From the IMG/VR virus record IMGVR_UViG_3300028569_000031, positions 14,025 through 78,024 of that record: a DNA stretch of 64,000 nt, one strand, 5' to 3'. Below the pieces are notes generated by a model. It did not search any database and was not told the DNA's origin. It saw only the letters and a program-made list of their open reading frames with translations. Of this stretch, positions 7,918 through 32,863 are shown piece after piece. Source of the DNA: a virus. Both the position numbers and the translations under genes were made by a program. The stretch's first letter is position 1. Each line of letters opens with the position of its first letter.

Positions 7918-8418
7918 ATGTTTAATGTGCCACCGAACGTACAATCCGCTGTTACCAGTGCTGGAGAAGCAGTTAAAAGCGGCGTTCAAGCAACAGAAAA
8001 AGTAGGAAAACGTGCAGCTAATTTTATTGCTGCAATTGGAACAAGTGGTGGTCCTGTTGGATCCGCTGCGTTAATTGGATTTGGAGCTGGTGCGGTTACC
8101 GGTGCATTAACATCAGCTTACCAACGTGAGCAAGGATTACATCGAATGGCTGGGGAAGCAATTAAAATTGGCAGCCCTCACTCACAGAGTGCAGTAATGC
8201 CAACGGATCTACAAGCCGGATATTTAAATTTAAATACTTTTGGATCGCCCCTACCAACACATGGATTAATGGGTGCTCATAATTTACGTGCCTCACAAAT
8301 AATTCAAGATCAAGCAACTGCATCTGAGCAGCAATATATGTCAGCATATATGCCGCAAACAGGTCAACTTCCTTTTGGGGAACTAACCCAACAACCACAA
8401 CAAAAAGGTCGCCGCTAA
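7918..8418 (+). CDS. hypothetical virion-associated protein
   Basis: ORF with SD in head cluster; hydrophobic Gly segment and RMAGE motif. Confidence 0.55.
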   Translation: MFNVPPNVQSAVTSAGEAVKSGVQATEKVGKRAANFIAAIGTSGGPVGSAALIGFGAGAVTGALTSAYQREQGLHRMAGEAIKIGSPHSQSAVMPTDLQAGYLNLNTFGSPLPTHGLMGAHNLRASQIIQDQATASEQQYMSAYMPQTGQLPFGELTQQPQQKGRR

Positions 8419-8717
8419 TGGACCACAACAAAGCCAAGAAAGCTAAAACAAAAGCTAAGTCACACAACACACAGAAAAAATCTTCCCCAGAACAAGTTGC
8501 CCAGCAACAAGCCGCCACAGCGCAGATGATGGCAATGTCTCAGCAACAGGGCCAGGGTTTTATTAATCCGGAAGTGCAAGCACAGCAAATTTCTTTACAA
8601 CCGCCAACAACTAATCCTTATCACATGATGGGTGCAATGGCGCCTACATCTTACCGTTACGGAAACATGGTAGATGGTTACGCTGGAGTTGATCCGCAAT
8701 TTCGCCCAATGGGTTAA
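8418..8717 (+). CDS. hypothetical protein (basic N-terminus, Q/M-rich)
   Basis: start overlaps previous stop (TAATG). Confidence 0.55.
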   Translation: MDHNKAKKAKTKAKSHNTQKKSSPEQVAQQQAATAQMMAMSQQQGQGFINPEVQAQQISLQPPTTNPYHMMGAMAPTSYRYGNMVDGYAGVDPQFRPMG

Positions 8718-8828
8718 TAATCGGGGTAAGTAAGTCTTTGCTATAATTTTATTAATGGAGCAAATGTTCCAGATACTTTGAGGTAATTAACCTCAGGTTT
8801 CAGCTAATCCTTACGCTGAGTAACCACT

Positions 8829-9971
8829 ATGTTTATCGATAACGACTTTCCCAAGCTGTTGGGCGCGGAGCTGTACCGCCCCCACCCAGCGTATATCGTG
8901 GAGATGGCGGCTGAGCCCGTTGTGGTCCATGACTTCACAAAACAGCCAGGACAGACTGTGCAGCTGGACCGTTATCGTTTCTGGGGTAACCCTGGAACAA
9001 AGACCAGCCGCGAGCGTACCCAAGATCAAACTATCGGTACAGCTAGCAGCCGTGCAATCGTAAAAGACAAGGTTCTTGTTTCTTTGCGTGAGTACACTGG
9101 TCCTGCCGACCCTAACAATACAAACCTTCCCAGCACCTTCAAGATTGCTAGGGAAACCCTGATGACCGCTCAGCGTCTTCTTTTGGACTCCGGGAACCTT
9201 AATATGTTCCACCAGTCCATTGGTTCGTTGACACTTCTGGATGATTATCGTCGTTGGAGGGACCGCGTGTTCCTTGACGAGATGGCGAAATCAGAATCCC
9301 GTGGCGCATCTGGCGACTCACAGGGCGGTTACTACTACCCCAACGGTAAGGCCAAGTCTTCTTCTACCGTACTTAGCTCTTATAGTGCTACCGAGTACGC
9401 TTCTGAGCGTTACAAGTTTAACGTAAAGACCGACCTTCTAGAGGTTGTTCGTCAATTGCGTAAGCGTAACGTTCCTGTATTCCAAGACGGTTACTATCGT
9501 TGTATTGCTGACCCTTCTTTCATGAAGGATCTGCGTGCTGATCAAGGCTTCCGTGAAATCGCCCGTTACCCAGGTATGGGTCAAGGCAACCCTCTCATGG
9601 GTGCTGCTGGTCCTAACCAGGCAATTTATGGTGGTGGTCAATACGGCCAAGCAATGTTTGTTGCTGGTGAGCCCGTGATGCCTACCGGATTTGTATTTGA
9701 AGGAGTACGCTTCTTCGAGTCAACCAACTTTGCTGAAAAATCCATCACTTGTGATATTGGCGATGGTAGCGGTGCCATTACCCACACCACTCCTCCAGGC
9801 CTATTCTTTGGTCCTCAGGCAGTAGGCGTTGGTATCGGTGGCCCTAACGCCCAGGTTCTTATTAACAACAACGATGACTTTAGCCGTTTCATTATCTTGA
9901 TCTGGCAACTGTACGCTGGTTTTGCTAATTTGAACAAGGACTTTATCACCTCTGCTTTCACCATTATTTGA
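8829..9971 (+). CDS. major capsid protein
   Basis: 380 aa, HK97-like pattern (DFTKQPGQTVQLDRY, FEGVRFFES, LIWQLYAGF); C-ending codon bias; TATAAT upstream. Confidence 0.85.
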   Translation: MFIDNDFPKLLGAELYRPHPAYIVEMAAEPVVVHDFTKQPGQTVQLDRYRFWGNPGTKTSRERTQDQTIGTASSRAIVKDKVLVSLREYTGPADPNNTNLPSTFKIARETLMTAQRLLLDSGNLNMFHQSIGSLTLLDDYRRWRDRVFLDEMAKSESRGASGDSQGGYYYPNGKAKSSSTVLSSYSATEYASERYKFNVKTDLLEVVRQLRKRNVPVFQDGYYRCIADPSFMKDLRADQGFREIARYPGMGQGNPLMGAAGPNQAIYGGGQYGQAMFVAGEPVMPTGFVFEGVRFFESTNFAEKSITCDIGDGSGAITHTTPPGLFFGPQAVGVGIGGPNAQVLINNNDDFSRFIILIWQLYAGFANLNKDFITSAFTII

Positions 9972-9990
9972 GAATAAGAGGTACTAACAA

Positions 9991-10821
9991 ATGGCAACTT
10001 ACAAAACAAATGCTGGAAACATTCTCCAGCCCGGCGCTCAGATCAATCGCCTTTCTTCATTCAACGTAGAAGGTGTTTATGGTTGGCCAGGTATTGAAGC
10101 GTATGAGCTGGTTGGTTATGTAAAGATTAGCAATTTAGTTGCCGACAGGGCAAGCTACAAGAGCTTTGACATTACTGTACCTTCACCAGATCGTCGTGTT
10201 GATGACCGTGTACGTGATAACCGTACTTCATTGGTTGTTAATGCTTCTACTTTGCGCCCAGCTTATGTGTACGGTGCTTCTATAGCCGTAGCACAAGACA
10301 TTCCTTCCGGTGGTGTAGTTGGATTCCCCGCGTCTCCTGTAACTGCAGACATCGGCGGAACAACTAGCGATCTCCTCTTCCTTGGCCCTAACAATAGTGG
10401 TGTTCCTTTTGGTATCCCTAGTTCACAGGCCAACGGTTTAGCTGCTGCATCCTCTTACCTAACTGCTGCTTCTAACCTGTTTACTCAAGGTTCAGCCGCT
10501 GTTACAGGTGGTGGTACAGCAGGTATTGCTCCTTTCCTTAACACCGTTACTACTGCGGGTATTGTCGCTGCTAACCTTGCAGACTCAATGCTCTACAAGG
10601 TGACTGCAGATACTACCTTCAAGGTGTTTAGCACCACTGGTGTTACTGCAACCACTGTTAACGGTGCTGGTGTCTTTATCAGCGCAGCTGATTCTGATGC
10701 TGGTAAGGCAGGTTACTTGTTGTGCCGGGTTAATTACCTGCGCACAGCAGCTGCTGTTTCTTGGAATGACATCCAAGGTTTCATTGACTTTGCTTCTCAG
10801 GTTGGCGGCAACGATACTTGA
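9991..10821 (+). CDS. structural protein (minor capsid/decoration or tail)
   Basis: SD GAGGT; A/T/G/S-rich; directly after the capsid gene. Confidence 0.6.
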   Translation: MATYKTNAGNILQPGAQINRLSSFNVEGVYGWPGIEAYELVGYVKISNLVADRASYKSFDITVPSPDRRVDDRVRDNRTSLVVNASTLRPAYVYGASIAVAQDIPSGGVVGFPASPVTADIGGTTSDLLFLGPNNSGVPFGIPSSQANGLAAASSYLTAASNLFTQGSAAVTGGGTAGIAPFLNTVTTAGIVAANLADSMLYKVTADTTFKVFSTTGVTATTVNGAGVFISAADSDAGKAGYLLCRVNYLRTAAAVSWNDIQGFIDFASQVGGNDT

Positions 10822-10881
10822 TACTGGTCAATAAGGGTTAAGGTGGGTATTGTATTGATAGCTGTCATTTCATTTTTTTAA

Positions 10882-11322
10882 ATGCTGTATCAATACAAGC
10901 CCACCGGCTCCCTTCTTGAAGTTGTCTCTAAGCATGGGGAGGGCATCCTCATGTGTGTCGATTCACAAGATGAAGTTTGGTATGTAGCGGAAGAGGACCT
11001 TGTTCCACATCTTGATGCTACAAATGAAAAAATCCGTACAGAAGAACGTCTTACTGCTCAACTAGAAGAAGAAGGCGTTAAACCTGCAAAAGCAACTAAT
11101 CGAGAAACATTTCCACTTGACGTTAGGATTAACATAAATACTGCAAGTGCAAGACAAATTGCTGACGCATTACCTGGAGTAGGATTAAAAACAGCACGGG
11201 ACATTAAAGACTTACAATCTTCAATGACCGGTGAAAAGTTCGTTAAACTAGATCAACTTAAATCCATCAAACGGGTTGACTGGGACGAAATCTTTAAAGA
11301 AAATCTTATCCGCGTTGAGTAA
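10882..11322 (+). CDS. helix-hairpin-helix (ComEA/HHH_3-like) protein
   Basis: RININTASARQIADALPGVGLKTARDI. Confidence 0.75.
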   Translation: MLYQYKPTGSLLEVVSKHGEGILMCVDSQDEVWYVAEEDLVPHLDATNEKIRTEERLTAQLEEEGVKPAKATNRETFPLDVRININTASARQIADALPGVGLKTARDIKDLQSSMTGEKFVKLDQLKSIKRVDWDEIFKENLIRVE

Positions 11323-22149: not shown

Positions 22150-22980
22150 ATGCGTTATATAGGAAACACAACATTAACACCTGGTATAAGTTACCAACGT
22201 ATTGATAATATTGGGTCTAGTTTTAACGGCGTTACAACGTCTTTTCCATTATTAGTTTCTGGTATTTCACCTGTCCCATTTCCATCTAACCCACAACAGT
22301 GTTTAATTTCTGTTAACGGTGTAATTCAAAAGCCAGACCCAACCGGTGCAGCTGGCTTTAATTTAGTGGGTACGAACATAGTATTTGCCTCTGCTCCGAC
22401 AGGAGGTTGGGCTTTCTTCGGGGTTGTTCTTGCTGGGTCTGATTTTGTTGCGGTTGGGGCCAGTTTCCCAGATGGTTCAAATAGTGCACCGAGTATTACA
22501 TTTGATAATGCACCAACCACTGGTTTTTATCGCAGCGGCTCAAATGAAATTAGTGTTACTACTGGAGGTGTTCAACGTGCTGTTTTTGACGCTAACGGTA
22601 ATCTTGCTATAGGAGCATCTGTAGGTAATACAAAAATATATGTTCAAGGCACCGGAGCAATGAACATTGCAACTTTAACCGATGGGTCTACAATTACTCC
22701 TGATTTTACAGTTGCCAATAACTTTACAGTCACTTTGACCGGAACACCTCGAACACTTGCTAACCCAACTGGCATGACTGTTGGGCAGAGTGGTTTGATT
22801 TATATTCTGCAGGATGCAACTGGAAACAGGATTTTAAGTTACGGCAGCCATTGGAAATTCCCTGGCGGCCAATCGTTTAAAAATTTAACTACTACAGCAA
22901 ACGCAGTTGACTTAATTGGTTATACTGTACGTACAAGTACAAGCATTGCTTGTCAACTCGTAAACAACCTTACCCAATAA
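22150..22980 (+). CDS. tail fibre adaptor protein
   Basis: ISVNGVIQKP, DGSNSAPSITF; C-terminal ITPDF..QDATGNR domain. Confidence 0.7.
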   Translation: MRYIGNTTLTPGISYQRIDNIGSSFNGVTTSFPLLVSGISPVPFPSNPQQCLISVNGVIQKPDPTGAAGFNLVGTNIVFASAPTGGWAFFGVVLAGSDFVAVGASFPDGSNSAPSITFDNAPTTGFYRSGSNEISVTTGGVQRAVFDANGNLAIGASVGNTKIYVQGTGAMNIATLTDGSTITPDFTVANNFTVTLTGTPRTLANPTGMTVGQSGLIYILQDATGNRILSYGSHWKFPGGQSFKNLTTTANAVDLIGYTVRTSTSIACQLVNNLTQ

Positions 22981-22982
22981 TT

Positions 22983-25448
22983 ATGTCTATTCCAGGTTCT
23001 ACCAACCCCCTTTTATTATTTGGTGACCCCACTGGCGGACAGTACCAAATACAACGTTCGCTCAGATTCAATAGTAGTGACAGTGCCTACTTGTCTAAAA
23101 CCTTCTCATCTTCAGCGACAAGTTCTAGAAAACTTACTTATTCAACTTGGGTAAAACGAGCGGCATTAGATGTTGGATCGGTCCAACACTTTGGACTGTC
23201 TGCTGCAGTGTCTGGAAGCTCAAGAGACGCTATTAGATTTTCTGGCGACAGTATTCAAGTTTATTTCAATGAAGGAGCCTCTGGAATCGTAACTACAAAC
23301 GCAGTATTTCGTGATCTTTCCGCTTGGTATCATATTGTTATTTCAATTGACACCACTAACTCTACCCCCGCTGATCGGGTCATAATATATGTCAACGGTA
23401 GCCGTCAGTCTACTTCTGGAACACAACCCTCTCAGAATTACGACTTTACCGGTTTTCTAGTATCGGGAAAACAGCAAAACATCGGCAGAAATCCGGCACC
23501 CGATTATTATGTAAACGCCTACTTGGCCGATGTATTCCTAATCGACGGCCAGGCATTAACCCCCAGCAGTTTCACAGAAGTCAGTGCCACTACTGGGCAA
23601 CTCATACCCAAGGCATACACCGGCACATTTGGTACGAATGGATTCTGGCTGAAGTTCAGCGATAACTCCGCTCTAACCAGTGGCAGCAATGTTGGGGTCG
23701 GCAAAGATTACTCAGGTAATGCAAATTACTTTAATACTTCTGGCCTCAGCGTTACTGCTGGTGCTGGGAATGACAGCCTCGTAGACACCCCGACTTCTTA
23801 CGGCACCGATACCTACGTGGGTGGTGAGGTGAGGGGGAATTACTGCACGTGGAATCCGCTTGATCAAAAAAACTCCAATACTTTTTCTAATGGCAATCTT
23901 GATTGCGTGATTGCTGGGGCAGGAGAAATCTTTGGTACGCAAGGTGTAAGCAGTGGTAAGTGGTATTTTGAAATTGTTGGCACTGCTACAGCGGATTTCC
24001 TTGGTAGGTATGCAATTATTATGGGAGTTTGCAATTTATCAGTTACGCAAACAAGTCGATCTAGTGCAGGGTCGTGGTTATTCTATACCTATCTGGGGAC
24101 AAAAATTTCAAACGGAGTGGAAACTTCTTACGGAAACCAAGCAGCATTAAACGCAGTTGTTGGTGTTGCAGTTGATCTCGACAACTCAAAAATATGGTTT
24201 AGTGTTAATAATACTTGGCAAGCATCAGGAGATCCGGCGGCAGGGACAAACGCTGCGTTTACCAACGTATCTGGAGTTATTTCTCCTGTTGTATTCAATG
24301 GTAGCTCAAACTCTACAAATACTTTCGTATTAAATACAGGTTCTCGCGCATTTGCCTACACCGCCCCCAGCGGCTTCAAGGCACTATGCGATACCAACCT
24401 CGGCGCCCCATTAGTCGCCAAGCCTTCCACTGTATTCGATGTTATTACTTATACCGGCACAGGATCTAGCCTTACGCTGCCAAATGGTAGTAGTACTCCT
24501 ACCAGCATTTCATTTACACCAGATTTTGCATGGTTGAAAGGTCGCTCAGGTGCAACAAACCATGCGCTGTATGACGCAGTCCGTGGTGTGCAAAAAGATT
24601 TAGTTAGCAACAGTACGTCTGCTGAAACAACGGAAACCACCGGGTTAACTGCGTTTGGAACTAATACCTTTACTGTTGGCAGTTTGGCAAAACTGAATAC
24701 TAGTAGTTCTACATATGTTGCCTGGGCTTGGAATGCTGGCGGCACAACAGATCCTTCCAACACAGCAGGCTCCATCACTAGTCAGGTGAGGGCGAATGTT
24801 AGTGCTGGGTTTAGCGTTGTTGGATGGACTTCAAACGGCACCTTTGGCATTGAAACAACGGGTCATGGGTTAGGCGTATCACCGGATTTGATCATTGTAA
24901 AAAACAGAGACTCCGGTACTGATCCATGGCAAGTATTTCATTCTTCTTTTAGCAATACAGCCTCCGATTATCTGTTCTTGAATACAACTGCGGCGAAGGC
25001 TACGTCTGGCGCAACTATTTGGACCAGAAGTTCAACAACGTTTGGTTATAGGCAGTCTTCTATTTTCACCAATGGACAAAAAGGAATTGCTTACTGCTTC
25101 GCCCCAGTAGTCGGGTACTCTTCTTTCGGCAGCTACACCGGCAATGGCAGCGCAGATGGGCCGTTTGTGTATACCGGATTTAGGCCGAGGTGGATTATGG
25201 TGAAACGTACCGATTCTGCAATCCAGTGGACAATTCTGGACACATCTAGAAGCCCCAACAACGTCGCTGATGCTCGCCTTTTCCCAAACCTAGCTCAGGC
25301 AGAGACGGTCAACGGTGACGGCAACACCGATCTGCTTTCAAACGGTTTTAAGCCACGCAACATTGATAGCTCCTTTAACACAAACGGTGGCACTTACATA
25401 TTTGCAGCCTTTGCAGAAAACCCATTCCAATACGCCCGTGCCAGGTGA
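22983..25448 (+). CDS. long tail fibre / receptor-binding protein (LamG-like, SPRY-like and C-terminal domains)
   Basis: RSLRFN, WYHIV, GKWYFE, APSGFKAL, AFAENPFQYARAR; ATG 22983 preferred as start. Confidence 0.8.
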   Translation: MSIPGSTNPLLLFGDPTGGQYQIQRSLRFNSSDSAYLSKTFSSSATSSRKLTYSTWVKRAALDVGSVQHFGLSAAVSGSSRDAIRFSGDSIQVYFNEGASGIVTTNAVFRDLSAWYHIVISIDTTNSTPADRVIIYVNGSRQSTSGTQPSQNYDFTGFLVSGKQQNIGRNPAPDYYVNAYLADVFLIDGQALTPSSFTEVSATTGQLIPKAYTGTFGTNGFWLKFSDNSALTSGSNVGVGKDYSGNANYFNTSGLSVTAGAGNDSLVDTPTSYGTDTYVGGEVRGNYCTWNPLDQKNSNTFSNGNLDCVIAGAGEIFGTQGVSSGKWYFEIVGTATADFLGRYAIIMGVCNLSVTQTSRSSAGSWLFYTYLGTKISNGVETSYGNQAALNAVVGVAVDLDNSKIWFSVNNTWQASGDPAAGTNAAFTNVSGVISPVVFNGSSNSTNTFVLNTGSRAFAYTAPSGFKALCDTNLGAPLVAKPSTVFDVITYTGTGSSLTLPNGSSTPTSISFTPDFAWLKGRSGATNHALYDAVRGVQKDLVSNSTSAETTETTGLTAFGTNTFTVGSLAKLNTSSSTYVAWAWNAGGTTDPSNTAGSITSQVRANVSAGFSVVGWTSNGTFGIETTGHGLGVSPDLIIVKNRDSGTDPWQVFHSSFSNTASDYLFLNTTAAKATSGATIWTRSSTTFGYRQSSIFTNGQKGIAYCFAPVVGYSSFGSYTGNGSADGPFVYTGFRPRWIMVKRTDSAIQWTILDTSRSPNNVADARLFPNLAQAETVNGDGNTDLLSNGFKPRNIDSSFNTNGGTYIFAAFAENPFQYARAR

Positions 25449-25478
25449 GTAGTGAACACGGATACGATGCTGGGGGCA

Positions 25479-25673
25479 ATGACACGTTTCTTCTCTGACC
25501 TTACCAAAAGCATCAGCGAAAAACGCCGCGAACAAATCGAACGCCGCAAAGCCGAGCTTCGGCAACGATTTTCTTCCAAAACCATCCATCGCCTTGCCGA
25601 TAACAAACTTTACAAACTCACAGTCGATGGCTGGGTCGAGGTCCAGCCCAGACTCGATTCAGACAGGGCTTGA
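25479..25673 (+). CDS. small hypothetical protein (cassette-like)
   Basis: begins just after the first TAGT site; C-ending codon usage unlike core genes. Confidence 0.5.
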   Translation: MTRFFSDLTKSISEKRREQIERRKAELRQRFSSKTIHRLADNKLYKLTVDGWVEVQPRLDSDRA

Positions 25674-25854
25674 CACAAAAGTTTAGAACGCCCCACTTTT
25701 AACCCCGTGGAAATCGACGGGTTTGCTGTTTGCAAATAGCGAACAGTCAGGTACTTTTTCATGGATTCACAAATTTGCAAAATCGTGAAAAAGCCTTAAC
25801 ATGATTAGGCAGCGAGTATCAGCTCCTGCTGCCGGCCACAATCCTCTGGAGATC

Positions 25855-26160
25855 ATGACCACCGAACTGTACGAGATCCGTGACTACGCATACGAGCCAG
25901 GATGGGTTCATTACGTCACGGAAACAACCACTTCTATTGCAGACTCTTGGACAACTGCATTACCTCTTGACTCAGAAAATATTGAGAAGTTTGGTGCAGC
26001 AACACCGCCAAAAAGATTTAAAACAAAAGCAGAAGCCAAACCTTATCTTGATGCACTAAAAGCAGCACGTCTAGAAAATTGGGCAAAAGACGGCTATTTA
26101 GATAAAGCACGTGGGCGTTGTCGTCCTGCCTGGAAGATCTATGCTGCTAAAGCCTCCTAG
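25855..26160 (+). CDS. hypothetical protein (cassette-like)
   Basis: GGAG SD before ATG 25855; stop codon TAG forms the start of a TAGT site. Confidence 0.6.
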   Translation: MTTELYEIRDYAYEPGWVHYVTETTTSIADSWTTALPLDSENIEKFGAATPPKRFKTKAEAKPYLDALKAARLENWAKDGYLDKARGRCRPAWKIYAAKAS

Positions 26161-26413
26161 TCCTTGGCTCTACTCACCCGTGGAAGCCAAAGGGCTACCG
26201 ATCAAGTACTGTGCACATACTGCACATTGCAACTCTCTGGAAATTCCGGACAGTTCAGGTGTGCCTAGTAGTCCCGCACACTAGTCCGGTCAACTACGAT
26301 TGGGCTGGGTTGTAATTTTCTAGTACTTATTCAAAGAAAGCGGCTCAATTTTGAATAAGCCTCAATCTTATTCAAGTTTGACGCGGTAAAATAAGGCTGC
26401 TTATCACCAATCC

Positions 26414-26671
26414 ATGACTAACCCCGCTCCAGTAGCAACTATTCTTACAGTTTCTATCCACCGAACAAGTACGAATCCTGTCCATGGCCGTGGGGTCCTA
26501 CAGATTTCTATTGACGACGAAGGCGCAGGAGGTTTTATAAAAATACGTGAATTAGGTGATGATCTAGATAATTGCGTGCGCCTGGATGCTGATGAACTGG
26601 ATTTGGTTTTCCAGGAAGCCAAAAAACTTATTGATCAGAAAACACTGCTTCCTTTTAAGGATCTGATTTAG
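26414..26671 (+). CDS. hypothetical phage protein
   Basis: ISIDDEGAGGFIKI motif; TAAAAT upstream. Confidence 0.65.
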   Translation: MTNPAPVATILTVSIHRTSTNPVHGRGVLQISIDDEGAGGFIKIRELGDDLDNCVRLDADELDLVFQEAKKLIDQKTLLPFKDLI

Positions 26672-26675
26672 TAAC

Positions 26676-26987
26676 ATGACACCACAACAAAACGACGTAC
26701 TCTTAGCTGCTGTTGATCTGATCAACGGTGGAATGGACATGGAAGAAGCATTGGGTTGTTACCGAGTTATTGCTCAATACGTTGTGAAAACAATTCCACC
26801 TGATTCTGTAGAGAACAAGTACAATCTATTAAAACCGTTACCTGATCTTGAAAGGCAAGAAATAATGTGGCGCGTTGCTGTTACGTCCGCACTGGAAACA
26901 GGAGAGGCTCCATATGAACTTTTTGCTAATCGTCTTCATAGCTATCTTGCTGGTAAAAACCTCATGGAGATAGAGCAGCTATCTTGA
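26676..26987 (+). CDS. hypothetical protein
   Basis: follows previous ORF by 4 nt. Confidence 0.55.
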   Translation: MTPQQNDVLLAAVDLINGGMDMEEALGCYRVIAQYVVKTIPPDSVENKYNLLKPLPDLERQEIMWRVAVTSALETGEAPYELFANRLHSYLAGKNLMEIEQLS

Positions 26988-27077
26988 GAATCCTAGATTG
27001 TTTGAAACATCTAATCACTATATATATATATGATATAAAAGAGATTGTTTAACAATTTTTATGGACATCTTACCAAT

Positions 27078-27103
27078 AAAAAAGACCCTCCGAAGAAGGT
27101 CTT
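27078..27103 (-). terminator. psbA rho-independent terminator
   Basis: minus strand AAGACCTTC-TTCG-GAGGGTCTT plus T run (cUUCGg loop). Confidence 0.85.
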
Positions 27104-27123
27104 AAGAACTGTTAATTTATTTA

Positions 27124-28203
27124 TCAACCAATAGAAGGTGCAGTAAGAGCAACAGAAGTTAACTCAGAAGCAGCAAGATCTAAAGGAAAGTTATGAGCAT
27201 TTCTTTCATGCATTACTTCTAAACCAAGTCCAGCACGGTTCAGAATATCCGCCCAAGTTGGTACAACACGGTTCTGACTGTCAACAATTGACTGGTTAAA
27301 ATTAAATCCATTAAGATTAAACGCCATTGTAGAAACACCTAGAGCAGTGAACCAGATGCCAACAACCGGCCAAGCAGCTAAGAAAAAGTGAAGTGAACGA
27401 CTGTTGTTGAACGAAGCATACTGGAAAATAAGTCTTCCAAAGTACCCGTGAGCAGCAACAATGTTGTAGGTCTCTTCTTCTTGGCCAAACTTATAGCCGT
27501 AGTTATGCGATTCATTCTCTGTGGTTTCACGAACCAAGCTGGAGGTAACCAATGAACCGTGCATTGCACTAAACAAGCTGCCACCAAACACACCTGCTAC
27601 GCCGAGCATGTGGAAGGGGTGCATAAGAATGTTATGCTCAGCTTGGAACACCAACATGTAGTTGAATGTACCAGAGATACCCAATGGCATCGCATCAGAA
27701 AAAGAACCTTGACCGAAAGGATATACAAGGAATACAGCAGTCGCAGCAGCAACAGGTGCTGAGTAAGCAACGCAGATCCAAGGGCGCATTCCTAATCGAT
27801 AGCTAAGTTCCCATTCGCGTCCCATGTAAGCAAAGATGCCAATGAGGAAGTGGAATACGACGAGTTGGAACGGCCCGCCGTTGTAGAGCCATTCATCAAG
27901 GGAAGCAGCTTCCCAAATTGGATAGAAATGTAATCCGATTGCATTTGAGGAGGGGACAACCGCTCCTGAAATAATGTTGTTTCCATAAAGTAAAGAGCCA
28001 GATACAGGCTCGCGGATCCCATCTATATCGACAGGTGGAGCACCAATAAAAGCTATGGTGAAGCAGACGGTAGCAGCAAGAAGTGTTGGAATCATTAGGA
28101 CTCCAAACCAACCAACGTATATCCGATTTTCAGTTGAGGTTACCCAACGGCAAAATTGTTGCCATAGGTTCGTTTGTTCTTGTAAGGCAATTGAAGCAGT
28201 CAC
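27124..28203 (-). CDS. psbA: photosystem II D1 protein (E130 form)
   Basis: unmistakable D1 sequence ([42 protein letters not shown]); GTG start. Confidence 0.99.
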
Positions 28204-28290
28204 TTTTAAAAGGGTAGGTATGAGTCCGGGGGACGAACGGGTTGTGTTATTCCCACATCACCCTCAGATGCGGGTATTAGAGATGATTTA
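28204..28290 (-). ncRNA. PhotoRC-II-like cis-regulatory RNA in the psbA leader
   Basis: minus strand CTCTAATA-CCCGCATC-TGAGGGT-GATGTGGG-AATA hairpin with GAGGG loop and a downstream CCCCC; resembles the cyanophage psbA leader motif from memory. Confidence 0.7.
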
Positions 28291-28313
28291 CTTCTGATGA
28301 TCTCGGTTTCAGA

Positions 28314-28364
28314 AGTGTAAGGAATTGTAAAGTTTTATCTTCATTCCCTGACTTATTCAGTATA
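28314..28364 (-). promoter_or_regulatory. psbA promoter with HLR1-like (RpaB) direct repeat
   Basis: -10 TATACT at 28364-28359; TTTACAAT-TC-CTTACACT at 28331-28314. Confidence 0.55.
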
Positions 28365-28474
28365 GCTTGTTTAAACACAAATTGTGGGGGTGACCGAAGA
28401 ACTTAAGTGGCTAAGAGTTCCTAAAGTGTACTAAAAAAACAAGTCTATAATTAGTAAAGAAAGGCTCAATTCAG

Positions 28475-29269
28475 TTGGCTGTTAATCCTAACAATTTTTT
28501 AAAAGAATACCTTGATCCAATCAAAGAGTCAGGGGAAGGTACGTTTGCTTATAATCCGAACTTGGAGTACGAAGATACGGCAGGACTGTTCGGAAGCATT
28601 TTACAAAAAGCACAACAATTTGTTAATAGCGCGAATAAATTAGGAACCGATGTTTACAGTGGCGCTGGTAGAGCTTATGAAAATGTTGATAAGACAGTAT
28701 TTAAAGGGTCACTTCCCTATGGTTCAGATTATGTTAAACCAAGTAGAAGCATTCCGGCAATTTTCAACGATGTCTTAGATAAAGGATTAATTCCAGTTCC
28801 AACAACAGATAGAAACACCTGGGCAGCAGCCACTGGCGTCAAGGCCTACGCTGGTCCATTGGGTAAACCATTTAGAGTAATGGATAATCCAGATGCGGCA
28901 AAGTATAGGTATGAAACCCTTGGCTACGCTCAACCATCAAACAATGATATTAATTATGGATTAAGTACCACCGGAAAATATAGACAAGGGTATGAAAAAT
29001 TAAGGGATGAGCCTGCAAATATGGCAATTGGCCAATATTCAGCAACCCCAGATCGTTTTGGTTTTGTCAATGTAACAGATAATTACAATACAAACAACCC
29101 TCTTAGCTGGTATTTTAATAAAGTTGTTGAAGGTTCTCCAAGTGAGAAAGGTTTTTACGCAGTTGCCGGGGCGGGTAAGGCCTTGGAAAACATTGGGTGG
29201 TTAAATCAACGACCACTGGGTTCAAGTGTCCCCATGGGATTTGTGAATCCCACAAACCGAGACAACTGA
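28475..29269 (+). CDS. hypothetical protein, possibly virion cargo
   Basis: TATAAT promoter upstream, TTG start, N-terminal NFLKEYL. Confidence 0.55.
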   Translation: MAVNPNNFLKEYLDPIKESGEGTFAYNPNLEYEDTAGLFGSILQKAQQFVNSANKLGTDVYSGAGRAYENVDKTVFKGSLPYGSDYVKPSRSIPAIFNDVLDKGLIPVPTTDRNTWAAATGVKAYAGPLGKPFRVMDNPDAAKYRYETLGYAQPSNNDINYGLSTTGKYRQGYEKLRDEPANMAIGQYSATPDRFGFVNVTDNYNTNNPLSWYFNKVVEGSPSEKGFYAVAGAGKALENIGWLNQRPLGSSVPMGFVNPTNRDN

Positions 29270-29458
29270 AATCACAACTCCAAGTAAAATCCACGTTCCG
29301 TCCGCAAAAACATTGATTCTATGTCGTAACTCCGCATGGTTATTCTGTGTTTCATATGCTTTATTTAACTGATACATATCAGTAAGCCCCCAGTAAGATG
29401 ACACGGTGGCTGCACCAAGACCAAATATAAAGGAACAAGAAAGAAAAAAGTTTTTCAT
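29222..29458 (-). CDS. small two-TM membrane protein
   Basis: two hydrophobic segments. Confidence 0.55.
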   Translation of the reverse strand: MKNFFLSCSFIFGLGAATVSSYWGLTDMYQLNKAYETQNNHAELRHRINVFADGTWILLGVVISVVSVCGIHKSHGDT

Positions 29459-29590
29459 ATGCCTTGTGAAAATTTGAGAAGGTTTGTGGATAGGATTGAG
29501 ATTAGATCTAAGCAGTTTAACGTCATGTTTAGGACGATTATTTAAAATAAAAACAAAACACTTGTTACAATTGATTTAACAGTTGCTTGC

Positions 29591-29848
29591 GTGGTCATGC
29601 CTAACTGGCTCTGGCGTTCAATACTTGCTACAGCGGCTTCAATCATGTTGCTTACTGTCGCTCAGTGGGGGGCCTGTAGATTTTATGTTTTTCCAACAGC
29701 ATGGCCTTGGTACGCTAAGTATGTAGGCACTCCTGAAGGTAAAGCTATCGAAGCTCAACCAACCTGTGCAGACAGTGATAGCAGAGCCATAACATCTATG
29801 ATGGCTGTGTTAACAACATTAATAAGCCTTAGTCGTAAGGCTGATTAA
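29591..29848 (+). CDS. small membrane protein
   Basis: two hydrophobic segments; TACAAT upstream. Confidence 0.55.
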   Translation: MVMPNWLWRSILATAASIMLLTVAQWGACRFYVFPTAWPWYAKYVGTPEGKAIEAQPTCADSDSRAITSMMAVLTTLISLSRKAD

Positions 29849-29868
29849 CTCAATTTAATAAGCATGCA

Positions 29869-30051
29869 ATGAAAGTTAAAACCCGTGTAGTTCTTGAAGA
29901 TGCTATAGATAGGGGTATTCGAGATGGTTATCGTCGTGCCCATAAACACGTTGAAAATCCAGAAGAAGACTCAATTCACCTGGCAATAGAAGACGCTATC
30001 TGGCATGAACTTGATAAAGTTTTTTGTTTTGATGATGAATACACTACTTAA
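29869..30051 (+). CDS. hypothetical phage protein
   Basis: GYRRAHKHVENP motif typical of cyanophage small ORFs. Confidence 0.65.
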   Translation: MKVKTRVVLEDAIDRGIRDGYRRAHKHVENPEEDSIHLAIEDAIWHELDKVFCFDDEYTT

Positions 30052-30056
30052 TGGTT

Positions 30057-30908
30057 TTATAAAACAGGCATTTCATACTCCTGAGTAACGTTTACATAAT
30101 GCTTCCAAATAACTTCTGAACTGTTACCTGCCCAGTTTGCAACTTGTGCTACCGGAATCTGAGCTTCAATCCACCGGCTAATTGCCGTATGCCGCAAGTC
30201 ATACGGTCTATACCTATTTTGAATAAGTTTTTCTTCATGCAACTCTTTCATTCGATCATAAAAATAACTTTGAAACGCATACCTATTCCAAGGGAAAATA
30301 TATTCACTAGTTTTTGATACGGCTTCCATGATTTCTTGGCACCTATTATTTAAAGGAACCCACCGTTTCCTATTTGTTTTTGTTGAATTTTTATACCCAT
30401 GAGTAAGAGTATAGTTACTATGTACAAGGATTTTATTTTCTTTTATATCTTCCCATTTAAGTGCACGCACTTCGCCAGTACGCATTGCGGTTTGCAACAT
30501 AAACTCAGAATAGAATGCCCAGTTAGCCCCGTTACGGGCTTGTTTTGATCCAAGTGCTTTCAGAACTAACTCTGTTTCTTGCCGTGGAATTACAATAATA
30601 TCTACATCTTCCTGCGGTGGTTTTGGCATTTTAAAACTAACAATTGGGTTCTTATCAATTAACCTAATATCTTCACTAGATGCCCAACGATATAACGATT
30701 TTATGTACATTGTTACACGCCGACTAGATTTAACAGGTTTTTGACTTAATATCCATGTTAATATTTTTCTTCCTTCATTCAAATCTGTAATTGGACATTT
30801 GTTTAACCAGTTACCCACCTGCCTGTAGTCTGCAACCAGACTGGTCGGACATAGTGCAATGGCTCTTTCAGTTTTGAATTGCTCCCAGGCTTCAAGTAGT
30901 GTTGTCAT
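30057..30908 (-). CDS. int: tyrosine recombinase/integrase
   Basis: TAMRTGEVRALKW, STKT, YDLRHTAIS, AGNS..IWKHY catalytic motifs; short, with no arm-binding domain. Confidence 0.9.
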   Translation of the reverse strand: MTTLLEAWEQFKTERAIALCPTSLVADYRQVGNWLNKCPITDLNEGRKILTWILSQKPVKSSRRVTMYIKSLYRWASSEDIRLIDKNPIVSFKMPKPPQEDVDIIVIPRQETELVLKALGSKQARNGANWAFYSEFMLQTAMRTGEVRALKWEDIKENKILVHSNYTLTHGYKNSTKTNRKRWVPLNNRCQEIMEAVSKTSEYIFPWNRYAFQSYFYDRMKELHEEKLIQNRYRPYDLRHTAISRWIEAQIPVAQVANWAGNSSEVIWKHYVNVTQEYEMPVL

Positions 30909-31025
30909 TGGTGGGAATTTTGTTGGCCTAGCTTAGCATAAAATCGGTTAATGTGCCAGGATGGCTTCGGTTTCCTACACCACAGGGGCTAAGAAGGCTT
31001 ACAATGATTAAAAACCTGAAGCATA

Positions 31026-31592
31026 ATGTTTCTTTTAAACGGTAAGCCTATATCTCCAGATTCTCCGTTTGTGACGCCGGATGGGACCCAGTACCCTTCA
31101 AACTGGATCCGATTTGCTTCCCCTGAAGACCGAAAAGCAATTGGAATTACTGAAGTTCCTGATCCCCCTTACTATGATCAACGGTTTTATTGGGCACCAG
31201 GAATACCTAAAGACCACGACCAGTTGGTTACTCAGTGGGTGGATCAAACCAGGCAGACTGCTAATACTTTAATTAGCCCTACGGATTGGATGATTGTGCG
31301 TTCTGTTGATAACGGGAAAGAAACAGATCCAGTCATTAAAACCTGGAGAGAAAACATACGTACTACATCAGGTCTTAAGGTTTCAAAAATTAAAGCTACA
31401 AAAACAACAAATGATTTAGCTAATTTTGTTACTTCACCTGAGTATTCTTCCTGGCCTGTGCAGGGTGCTAGTGACAACTTAGTTACGTCAGATACAGTGA
31501 TTGATTCTGGTACAACGGATTACGTTACCAATTCTGGTGGTATAGATTATCTTTCATTTAATTCAGGCACAACGACTTCTGGTATAGTTTAG
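31026..31592 (+). CDS. tail fibre assembly/partner protein
   Basis: DGTQYPSNW..AIGITEV..YDQRFYW..TDWMIVR..WRENIR. Confidence 0.75.
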   Translation: MFLLNGKPISPDSPFVTPDGTQYPSNWIRFASPEDRKAIGITEVPDPPYYDQRFYWAPGIPKDHDQLVTQWVDQTRQTANTLISPTDWMIVRSVDNGKETDPVIKTWRENIRTTSGLKVSKIKATKTTNDLANFVTSPEYSSWPVQGASDNLVTSDTVIDSGTTDYVTNSGGIDYLSFNSGTTTSGIV

Positions 31593-31612: not shown

Positions 31613-32863
31613 GTGAAAACATCTGTACAAGGATTAAAATTAATAAAAGGATTTGAAGGCCTCAGGCTTACTGCTTATTACGACGTGGTTGGCGTGTTGA
31701 CAATAGGATATGGTCACACAGGAGATGACGTATACGTTGGCCAAACTATTACAGAACAACAGGCTGAACAATTACTTCAAAAAGATTTAGACTTTTTTGA
31801 ACAATCAGTAAGTAAATTAATTTCAATAAATTTAAATCAGAATCAATTCGATGCACTTGTAAGTTTTACTTATAATGTTGGAGCTGGTGCGTTAGGTGAA
31901 TCTACTCTACGCAAACGTTTGAATAGCGGAGAGAACACCAATATTGCAGCAACACAGGAATTAGTAAAGTGGACAAAAGGCGGTGATGGTCAGAGTATAG
32001 CTGGTTTAATAAGACGCCGAACAGAAGAAATTAAGTTATTCTGTGCTGTTAATAACCAGAAAGAAGAAATAACCACCATTAGTGTTACCTCTCTTCAGCA
32101 AACTTGGTTTAAGAAAGAGCCTAAGCATGCAGACAAACTTGCTAATGACAGTAAAGCAAAGGTTTATCAGGGACGGACTTACCCAGGTAATCAAGTTTTA
32201 GAAAAAAAAGATAAACATACTTTGCTTGAAATGGGAAACAAAATGGGCAGATGGTGGATTTATGATGATCATTGGAGTGGACTAACACCGAAGATACATC
32301 CTTATGCACAGGATGGAGATTTACGTTATCTACGTAACTTTCCTTTCTTTGATCAAAAAGATAACGGCCCCGAGGGCTGGCGCCAATGTCAGACAAGCTC
32401 AATTGCAATGTGTTTAAAATACACTAACGTAAAAGAAATAAAAGATGATACAGATTATTTAAAAGTTGTTGAACGCTTTGGTGATACGACCACTAGGGAT
32501 GCTCATTATAAAGCGTTAGAATCTCTTAACGTATCTGCAAAATTTTATACAAACTTAGAAGAACAAGATATTAAAGATCAGATTGATAAAGGTAAGCCCG
32601 TGGCTGTTGGTATACTTCATCACGGCATGATAGACGCCCCACGTGGAGGTGGACATTTCATAACCATCTCTGGATATAGTAGCAGTTACTGGCTGGTTCA
32701 GGACCCTTATGGGGACCTAGACTTAGTTAATGGAGTATGGGAGAACCAGTCACCTGGTGCAGGTAAAAACAGGCACTATAGTTTTAAAAACTTAAATCCA
32801 CGTTTGTTTTACGGCGGCTGTGCTAATGGCTGGGGTTGGATCATTAAGGGAAGTAAGGGGTAA
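31613..32863 (+). CDS. endolysin: GH24 lysozyme plus C39-like peptidase
   Basis: IKGFEGLRLTAYYD..TIGYGH, QFDALVSF; QCQTSSIAM, GGHF, QDPYG. Confidence 0.88.
   Translation: MKTSVQGLKLIKGFEGLRLTAYYDVVGVLTIGYGHTGDDVYVGQTITEQQAEQLLQKDLDFFEQSVSKLISINLNQNQFDALVSFTYNVGAGALGESTLRKRLNSGENTNIAATQELVKWTKGGDGQSIAGLIRRRTEEIKLFCAVNNQKEEITTISVTSLQQTWFKKEPKHADKLANDSKAKVYQGRTYPGNQVLEKKDKHTLLEMGNKMGRWWIYDDHWSGLTPKIHPYAQDGDLRYLRNFPFFDQKDNGPEGWRQCQTSSIAMCLKYTNVKEIKDDTDYLKVVERFGDTTTRDAHYKALESLNVSAKFYTNLEEQDIKDQIDKGKPVAVGILHHGMIDAPRGGGHFITISGYSSSYWLVQDPYGDLDLVNGVWENQSPGAGKNRHYSFKNLNPRLFYGGCANGWGWIIKGSKG

Follow-up and report, generated by a model that had tools for sequence, protein, structure and literature searches.

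An optional-gene island carrying psbA and a dispensable tyrosine recombinase separates the tail fibre gene from its partner in a freshwater cyanophage

The stretch of DNA analysed here (the window; 64,000 nucleotides) comes from an IMG/VR genome of 78 kb that belongs to a freshwater cyanophage, a distant relative of S-EIV1. Its tail fibre gene, whose product matches Pfam DUF7483 (1.5e-105) and SPRY and falls among the virion structural and tail fibre proteins of PHROG, lies 5.5 kb from the gene for the DGTQYPSNW protein, as the initial annotation of the window had stated, and the eight accessory ORFs that it counted in the interval are all conserved as proteins in relatives (Table 1). The two flanking genes were also said to be usual neighbours, and this agrees with the adjacency of their homologues in MEP301, MedDCM-OCT-S37-C6, CRP-811 and SS120-1 and with a gap of 6-90 bp between them in about 25 IMG/VR relatives lacking the recombinase gene (int). 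A search of relatives for empty sites found them in L011, L013-L017, L022, L026, L040 and about 15 more, and close relatives were found to differ in island content cassette by cassette. An empty site between the same conserved flanking genes, cassette-wise differences in content and a cargo gene, psbA, with expression signals of its own are the features of an optional-gene (moron) island or hyperplastic region, and the interval is supported as a real, insertion-prone island; its ancestral state would have been the fibre gene followed directly by the partner. Variation sets in near 23100, inside the fibre gene rather than at its stop, and close relatives also exchange the fibre body: L072 shows 92.6% identity as far as 23096 and only 48% at the amino acid level beyond it.

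Table 1. Features of the fibre-partner interval and its flanks, in window coordinates.
Feature	Position	Strand	Description	Basis or occurrence
Tail fibre / virion structural protein	22950..25448	+	832 aa; SPRY + DUF7483; ends YARAR*	Pfam, PHROG
Left GTGCCAGG copy	25438..25445	+	fibre R-A-R codons and stop	sequence
a73	25452..25673	+	accessory ORF between fibre stop and the fibre's conserved hairpin	80-92% aa in L033/L035
Hairpin copy 1	25704..25721	+	conserved CCCGTGGAAATCGACGGG, then T run	terminator-like
a119	25801..26160	+	accessory ORF bounded by two hairpin copies	direct repeat D14
Degenerate junction site	26158..26172	+	TAGTCCTTGGCTCTA; TAG forms the stop of a119	site search
Hairpin copy 2	26177..26194	+	78% identical to copy 1	direct repeat D14
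Invariant 15-mer junction	26269..26283	+	TAGTCCCGCACACTA, TAGT-N7-ACTA	single-copy in 78-kb genome
Overlapping second site	26282..26296	+	TAGTCCGGTCAACTA	near-copy after 15-mer in L131, one base differing
a85	26414..26671	+	accessory ORF	80-86% aa in several relatives
a103	26676..26987	+	accessory ORF	93% aa in L004/L005; not in L012
psbA terminator	27082..27103	-	intrinsic; 9-bp stem and T run	terminator search
psbA	27124..28203	-	photosystem II D1, 359 aa	Pfam Photo_RC, 1.4e-91
PhotoRC-II RNA motif (RF01717)	28239..28330	-	phage-type psbA leader	52.8 bits; gathering score 39
a264	28475..29269	+	accessory ORF	missing in L069, L071, L074; present in L072
a78m	29222..29458	-	accessory ORF; two hydrophobic helices	92-96% aa in L009 and L012
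a85b	29591..29848	+	accessory ORF; membrane-like	86-99% aa in relatives
a60	29869..30051	+	accessory ORF; separate cassette (29864-30056)	missing in L072/L074; replaced in L071
Tyrosine recombinase (int)	30057..30908	-	283 aa; core-binding and catalytic domains	Pfam, PHROG integrase, fold, family conservation
int-partner intergenic region	30909..31025	.	divergent promoter-like boxes	holds right GTGCCAGG copy (30953-30960)
Partner gene	31026..31592	+	188 aa; tail-fibre-assembly-like, DGTQYPSNW protein	phrog_4912, 4.7e-4
Endolysin	31613..32863	+	first conserved gene right of island	PHROG endolysin, 1e-60

Presence and absence of single cassettes are seen among relatives that are 90-95% identical. 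ORFs a264 and a78m form one such cassette (28387-29537), its loss being marked in X3 by a joint 28404->29541, and lake metagenomes, the probable source run among them, contain variants lacking either this cassette or a119. In that run (X1) the a119-less variant co-occurs as a joint 25727->26200 at a depth of 44, with X1 contigs at depths of 357-526 on either side of it. An exact 15-nucleotide stretch of the hairpin is found in eight contexts with differing flanks, and in L012, L129 and L029 the hairpin directly follows the fibre stop. Homology maps of the locus show many short blocks and no whole-arm exchange, with many cassette-sized breakpoints and not one or two sites.

Among the relatives, psbA is confined to the subclade of the window, and its PhotoRC-II leader also occurs in L069, L071, L072 and L074. 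The initial annotation had credited psbA with a promoter and a terminator of its own; the terminator was found, and the promoter is plausible at most, with a TATACT box 29 nt ahead of the leader and a promoter consensus scan at chance level. That psbA arrived as cargo is supported by its confinement to the subclade and by the phage-type leader of its cassette, and leader, gene and terminator form one self-contained cassette, which probably came from the cyanophage gene pool. Whereas psbA is usually described in T4-like and T7-like cyanophages, the gene and its phage-type RNA leader are here placed in a freshwater lineage outside both groups, and the finding shows psbA sited in a fibre-adjacent hot spot. 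Descriptions of PhotoRC-II are limited to marine samples and one cyanophage (PMC2864571); as in cyanophage psbA, the motif lies directly upstream of the gene and scores above the Rfam gathering score, but its setting here is a freshwater lineage distant from S-EIV1 and an island adjacent to the fibre.

The product of int is matched by PF00589 over residues 126-276 (2e-17; 63.9 bits against a cut-off of 27.1) and by the phrog_1 integrase family (2e-36), and is 67% identical over 99% coverage to the integrase of S-LBS1. Across 23 family members, residues R143, K177/K181, R239, H240 and Y271 do not vary, and by eye Y236 and N262 appear at the motif positions of the first His and of the His/Trp, respectively. 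NCBIfam returned only weak Xer-type matches, XerD/XerC being the best, at 22-31 bits and far below the cut-offs. An AF2 model (pLDDT 81) has a two-domain fold composed of a core-binding helical bundle and a catalytic domain, and Foldseek ranks lambda Int first, with the 75-356 construct included, followed by Tn1549 Int, XerH and Cre (probability 1.00). The model opens directly with the core-binding helices, and its full length aligns to lambda Int 75-356, a construct without the arm-binding part; as had been claimed, the recombinase thus lacks an arm-binding domain.

A further proposal of the initial annotation, that the recombinase is the engine of gene capture or shuffling at the locus, is not supported by the relatives. 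Between L078/L077 and L011, which are 96-98% identical, int is itself a precise 898-bp single-gene indel without flanking repeats, and the same genomes also differ by a 622-bp ORF indel with 5-bp microhomology. Large islands exist without int, as in L035/L130 (7.2 kb), and L033 has int and an island of 1.9 kb; G001, which is 91% complete, retains the conserved island junction (the 15-mer) and has no int homologue. The recombinase is one more optional single-gene cassette that is not needed for island turnover, and the identity of Int rises and falls with that of the backbone, in keeping with vertical descent and repeated loss. A Pfam search of the 130 ORFs of the 78-kb genome detected no repressor, excisionase or antirepressor at E <= 1e-3, although divergent regulators could escape it. 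No close Int homologue was found in 185,579 species genomes by a scan that reaches close relatives only, and the best 120 of 1347 Int homologues (>=67% identity) all lie on contigs of <=86 kb. Neither Rfam nor ARAGORN detected a tRNA fragment in the island, and no tRNA overlaps the 15-mer in 113 loci.

We consider it rather probable that the locus is a mosaic optional-gene island remodelled between co-infecting relatives, with psbA as cargo and Int as an optional, host-integrating orphan. We infer that each ORF-sized cassette would come, go or be exchanged on its own during co-infection of a cell by related phages, with exchange at many breakpoints, some of which may be short conserved junctions (the 15-mer TAGTCCCGCACACTA, the related TAGTC-N5-CACTA sites and the repeated small hairpin) and others 5-bp microhomologies. 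Int, a conserved two-domain enzyme in a phage without other recognisable lysogeny genes, probably serves, by analogy with T7-like cyanophages, rare, possibly transient, integration into the host chromosome at a putative attP/attB pair. Counting against this account, no attP or attB was found, and by synteny int is next to the partner gene in all relatives, on one side or the other, a placement that the account leaves unexplained. Logan contigs, moreover, lose rare variants, and excised circles or host junctions could have escaped notice.

The 15-mer, a finding beyond the initial annotation, counts for the mosaic account through its reassorted flanks and against it through its strict invariance. 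This non-coding sequence is an imperfect inverted repeat, palindrome-like, around a 7-bp centre, and occurs exactly in at least 17 family loci and never with one or two mismatches (0.003 expected). Its flanks comprise at least 12 left and at least seven right types, of which the combinations A1, F1, A4 and F4 all exist, and at its edges identity falls from 83-99% to random, such that left and right flanks reassort exactly there; across the window TAGT-N7-ACTA occurs at chance frequency. Such strict invariance of a 15-bp palindrome-like site resembles the target of a site-specific recombinase, and generic recombination gives no account of its never varying. Int might then act on the 15-mer, and perhaps on TAGTC-N5-CACTA too, as a lox-like or attP x attP site for conservative exchange of island segments, in trans on phages lacking int as well. 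Consistent with this, the 622-bp indel begins 3 nt past the 15-mer, all clades with the 15-mer include int-bearing members, and TAGTC-N5-CACTA is found 11 times in int loci against 0.6 expected, always in one orientation, with one site abutting the int stop in L085 and one 26 nt upstream of the start of int in L081/L082. However, L011, L130 and L104, like G001, keep the exact 15-mer without int, and L085, L091, L094, L096 and S-LBS1 have int without the 15-mer; the conserved arms span only 4-5 bp, which is little for a half-site of a tyrosine recombinase, most breakpoints of the island lie elsewhere, and site and int are separated by anything from 1 bp to 5 kb. We regard this reading as unlikely; if true, it would amount to a lox-like system, with Int working in cis or in trans during co-infection, through which phages trade accessory-gene and host-range segments, and it would be neither an integron nor lysogeny. 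The 15-bp junction with its reassorted flanks offers a concrete, testable handle on how accessory-gene islands of phages are remodelled.

Less likely again is a Cre/Xer-like housekeeping role, in which the recombinase, through a site on the phage, would circularise the phage genome (or a plasmid-like carrier form of it) or resolve its multimers, with no connection to island or host chromosome. The two-domain architecture, the Xer-type NCBIfam and Cre and XerH fold matches, and the lack of chromosomal copies in the species-genome scan and among the best 120 of 1347 homologues would suit such a role, but near-identical phages do without the recombinase, which is thus not essential for replication or packaging, and the 130 ORFs include no partition genes by Pfam, nor is there a long-arm inverted-repeat site near int. 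A further model, built on the initial annotation, would make the whole 5.5-kb interval one element bounded by GTGCCAGG that the recombinase inserts or excises, or into which it captures genes in the manner of an integron; we regard it as extremely improbable. An 8-mer at both ends and int at one end speak for this model, but GTGCCAGG occurs three times in the window against 1.2 expected, a count reached by 10 of 100 shuffles, and neither copy is conserved in relatives: those ending in ARAR* encode it with different DNA, and the right copy sits inside a small indel where the 91%-identical, int-bearing L072-L075 read GTGCTGCAAG. On the right, empty-site relatives regain homology only at 30987-30994 and not already at 30960, and on the left variability starts within the fibre gene. 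The 8-mer is a chance repeat, a role as recombinase site is not supported, and its chance-level frequency, its unconserved copies and the mismatched homology borders largely refute a single bounded element. The repeat search also gave no attC-like imperfect palindromes beyond chance, cassettes occur on either strand, and no model of an integron integrase reached its cut-off. No joint spanning the whole island was among those listed from the metagenome contigs.

The mosaic island that we favour has counterparts among known systems. Arbiol et al. in 2010 reportedly described hyperplastic regions of T4-type phages that are shuffled at promoter-early stem-loops (PeSL elements). Those regions share with the present locus small optional ORFs between conserved genes, content that varies among close relatives, short conserved intergenic elements at cassette boundaries (here the hairpin and the 15-mer) and cassette loss between repeated copies (here of a119 between two hairpins). 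PeSL elements differ in combining a promoter with a stem-loop, whereas the junction in this other phage lineage is a 15-bp palindrome-like sequence, and no excised circles were observed. Integrons (IntI, attI, attC) likewise combine a terminally placed tyrosine recombinase with a row of small ORFs poor in promoters, and have short palindrome-like sites overlapping ORF stop codons, but here there is no IntI signature, cassettes are not each followed by an attC hairpin, the main site occurs only once, psbA and a78m lie on the opposite strand, and the array persists without the recombinase. The freshwater cyanosiphovirus S-LBS1 (PMC6157547) encodes a recombinase of the same family directly after a tail-fibre gene within the structural module, lysogeny not having been demonstrated, but has an unrelated backbone (34.6 kb, 60% GC), a non-homologous fibre, no psbA and no 15-mer. 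The T7-like cyanophages S-TIP37 and P-SSP7 carry an orphan integrase and an attP matching a host tRNA gene, and their integration has been shown, providing a precedent for integration without lysogeny (PMC8776855). As here, a variably present tyrosine integrase occurs in a lytic-looking cyanophage without a repressor and with psbA as an auxiliary gene; the enzyme family differs, the closest relative here being that of S-LBS1, the gene sits beside a tail-fibre helper, and neither attP nor attB was found. An integrase that is dispensable and polymorphic among near-identical phages adds to the question of what integrases do in lytic-looking cyanophages.

The 78,024-bp IMG/VR viral contig of which the window forms bases 14025-78024 is a single sequence classed as linear and approximately 91% complete. 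Its terminase, portal-like, capsid, primase, polymerase and ThyX proteins share 36-70% amino acid identity with those of Synechococcus phage S-EIV1, and we therefore regard the phage as a distant relative of S-EIV1. The window DNA recurs chiefly in lake-water metagenomes from several studies. A Pfam scan of ORFs genome-wide identified a Phage_tail_APC chaperone domain and Mtd_N (major tropism determinant N-terminal) among the tail ORFs, together with AdoMet decarboxylase, a ferritin-like protein, a 2OG-Fe(II) oxygenase and dCMP deaminase. There is no tRNA in the window, and a tRNA-Pro gene lies near the lysis/HNH region in relatives of the L011/L078 clade. Synteny comparison revealed that homologues of the fibre, partner, integrase and psbA are all absent from the corresponding place in S-EIV1, which proved too distant to act as a synteny reference, and closer relatives were thus drawn from IMG/VR (L-numbers denote comparison loci, including those of relatives from IMG/VR).

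ORF calls confirmed the layout described in the initial annotation, in which a tail fibre gene and its partner gene are separated by an island of approximately 5.5 kb holding eight accessory ORFs (named by length), psbA, and the tyrosine recombinase gene int. As all eight small ORFs have protein-level homologues in relatives, they are considered to be genes. The fibre contains SPRY and DUF7483 domains, and the 188-residue partner weakly matches a tail-fibre-assembly PHROG. The usual adjacency of these two genes stated in the initial annotation was borne out by MEP301, MedDCM-OCT-S37-C6, CRP-811, and SS120-1, in which their homologues abut, and the fibre end lies 6-90 bp from the partner gene in approximately 25 distinct int-less IMG/VR relatives. 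The comparison across relatives that had been proposed yielded both empty sites, in these int-less relatives, and content that varies by cassette.

Coordinates of features in the window and in related loci
Feature	Sequence	Position	Strand
Tail fibre gene	window	22950-25448	+
Receptor-binding fibre body	window	23100-25448	
8-bp repeat GTGCCAGG	window	25438-25445; 30953-30960	
Small hairpin CCCGTGGAAATCGACGGG	window	25704-25721; 26177-26194	
Small hairpin CCCGTGGAAATCGACGGG	L012	3876; 4143	
Degenerate TAGTCC-N6-CTA site	window	26158	
15-mer TAGTCCCGCACACTA	window	26269-26283	
Overlapping site TAGTCCGGTCAACTA	window	26282	
psbA (photosystem II D1)	window	27124-28203	-
PhotoRC-II RNA motif (RF01717)	window	28239-28330	-
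Cassette a264+a78m	window	28387-29537	
Cassette a60	window	29864-30056	
int (tyrosine recombinase, 283 aa)	window	30057-30908	-
Partner gene	window	31026-31592	+
MTDHPITPP ORF family	L018	1052; 1273	
MTDHPITPP ORF family	L078rc	659-1280	
MTDHPITPP ORF family	L085		
tRNA-Pro gene	L132	6781-6856	
tRNA-Pro gene	L133	4902-4977	
Fibre gene and integrase	S-LBS1 (L099/L101)	8292-10939	

The island is real. Among relatives that are 90-95% identical, the cassettes a264+a78m, a60, a103, and a73+a119 are independently present or absent, and some relatives carry other ORFs in place of the missing cassettes. Island variants also co-exist in lake-metagenome contigs: the run that is the probable source includes a form skipping from 25727 to 26200, in which a119 is lost from between the two copies of a small hairpin, at a depth of 44 versus 357-526 in the neighbouring contigs, and a form skipping from 28404 to 29541 was found in a different run. 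Among the joints listed from the Logan contigs, none spanned the whole island; contigs cannot exclude rare forms, and neither stretches lacking coverage nor the lack of circles carries weight as evidence. This conserved hairpin comes after the fibre stop codon in a subset of relatives and also occurs as duplicate copies around cassettes. Divergence also begins within the fibre gene near 23100, as L072 is 92.6% identical up to this point while the fibre body is 48% identical at the amino acid level. Comparison with L072/L012 showed this receptor-binding body to have been exchanged among phages that are 92-98% identical in the genes flanking it. Host-range determinant and accessory island together make up a single variable region. 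A shufflon-like role was rejected, as inverted repeats for a fibre-inversion switch were not above chance.

The 8-bp repeat at the two island ends, which the initial annotation itself called weak evidence on its own, was not upheld. Three copies occur in the window versus 1.2 expected, with as many in 10 of 100 shuffles. The left copy comprises the Arg-Ala-Arg-stop codons of the fibre, a peptide that relatives encode using other codons, and the right copy falls in a short indel between int and the partner gene, at which position the int-bearing L072-L075 (91% identical overall) have GTGCTGCAAG. On the right, homology with the empty-site relatives picks up again at 30987-30994, and on the left divergence already begins within the fibre gene near 23100. 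GTGCCAGG is thus a chance repeat that bounds nothing. Clustering of AGTAGT[CG] near the island ends, a post-hoc observation at chance frequency across the window, was dropped.

Following the junction between L011 and L078 led to a 15-mer, TAGTCCCGCACACTA, of the form TAGT-N7-ACTA, which is single copy in the 78-kb genome. At least 17 IMG/VR relatives, and approximately 25 metagenome contigs, carry an exact copy in the island between fibre and partner, in constant orientation, against a chance expectation of 0.003 in 1.4 Mb; copies with one or two mismatches were not found. The sequences flanking it are mosaic: at least 12 types occur on the left and at least 7 on the right, and the combinations A1, F1, A4, and F4 were all observed. 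Between pairs of loci, identity drops from 83-99% to random precisely at the edges of the 15-mer, and a k-mer screen placed it among the top mosaic-flanked motifs. Related TAGTC-N5/6-(C)ACTA sites are enriched in islands on the same strand (20 versus 3 expected), their leading TAG often being the stop codon of the upstream ORF, and the looser TAGT-N7-ACTA occurs at chance frequency genome-wide. Together with TAGTCCGGTCAACTA, which overlaps it, and a degenerate site, the 15-mer makes up three TAGTCC-N6-CTA sites within 140 bp. A family of small paralogous ORFs, starting with MTDHPITPP and ending with ...ELEAQ-TAG-TC, is often arranged in tandem and usually lies directly after the 15-mer, to its right at many loci. 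Scanning metagenomes for the 15-mer listed at least 80 loci, of which approximately 25 belong to the phage family, the others being unrelated contexts that arise by chance. Among the loci listed, neither a tRNA at the site nor a host context that recurs was seen, and the scan gives no indication for or against an attB. The 15-mer was also present in two unrelated repeated sequence families from marine and other metagenomes (L141, L142, L158, L161, L188, and L211; L136, L140, L151, and L194), which are probably chance occurrences in abundant elements.

It is doubtful that Int uses this 15-mer as its site. The strict invariance of the 15-mer, its palindromic arrangement around 7 bp and its single copy would be consistent with such use, as would the two variant sites that abut int (in L085 and in L081/L082), but the exact 15-mer is present in the 91%-complete relative G001, from which an Int homologue is absent, and is retained without int by L011, L130, and L104, whereas the int-bearing L085, L091, L094, L096, and S-LBS1 do not have it. 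In addition, the conserved arms of the 15-mer are only 4-5 bp, and instead of exchange of whole arms the homology maps show numerous further breakpoints on the scale of single cassettes. The most likely mechanism is that related phages co-infect a cell and recombine where they share a short conserved junction or a microhomology, which would remodel the island. The 15-bp junction is the part of the finding that merits experiment.

The initial annotation had also cast the recombinase as the engine of the island, a role that did not hold. Over more than 9 kb, L078 and L077 share 96-98% identity with L011, from which they differ by exactly 898 bp, corresponding to the int ORF and 47 bp upstream, in place of which L011 has 12 unrelated bases; no flanking repeats were found at this indel. 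int itself is therefore optional, and island size is independent of it, with L035/L130 having 7.2 kb without int and L033 having 1.9 kb with it. Int identity to the window declines in parallel with backbone identity, and on these alignments its history would fit vertical descent with repeated loss and may also include gain. Where present, int invariably adjoins the partner gene on the opposite strand, 68-149 bp upstream or approximately 50-160 bp downstream, with a few clade-level switches of side. The recombinase is thus an optional passenger and not the builder of the island.

Int matches PF00589. PDB sequence searches gave no useful match and a fold search was needed; the AlphaFold model, with a pLDDT of 81, aligns over its full length with Tn1549 Int, XerH, Cre, and the arm-less lambda Int 75-356 construct, the last of which confirmed the reported lack of an arm-binding domain. 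The family is large, with 1347 homologues, the best 120 of which are all on contigs of at most 86 kb, and it is strongly conserved. Scanning 185,579 species, each represented by a single genome, reaches close relatives only and returned no close homologue; the lone match was an unrelated Clostridia integrase, and this negative argues only weakly against prophages. Pfam, run on 130 ORFs, identified no gene for a repressor, excisionase, antirepressor or partition function, and no conserved attP-like motif was found beside int, whose upstream regions are unrelated across clades except for -10-like boxes.

The view of psbA as cargo was upheld. Megablast of the region against phages gave psbA as the sole match (76-80% to marine myoviruses), and the gene is confined to the window's own subclade (L004-L007 and L012). 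Its best outside homologues (93% amino acid identity) are on short contigs, so nothing was learned of the donor; the gene is cargo drawn from the pool of phage genes. Of the promoter and terminator previously ascribed to it, the terminator is strong and lies 21 nt past the stop codon, while the promoter is only plausible. Directly upstream of psbA is a PhotoRC-II RNA motif that the initial annotation did not report, scoring 52.8 bits versus an Rfam gathering score of 39 and found in every psbA-bearing relative. Descriptions of PhotoRC-II are confined to marine samples and a cyanophage, with cyanobacteria carrying PhotoRC-I (PMC2864571), whereas the present lineage is a freshwater one and distantly related to S-EIV1.

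The nearest described enzyme to Int is the integrase of S-LBS1 (67% amino acid identity), a phage for which lysogeny could not be shown (PMC6157547). By analogy to T7-like cyanophages (PMC8776855), the orphan integrase would probably serve rare host integration. S-LBS1 is an unrelated siphovirus in which an integrase of the same family directly follows a non-homologous fibre gene midway through the structural module, and its fibre and downstream ORF have no similarity to the fibre and partner of this phage. The link between the integrase and fibre genes is a recurrent one.
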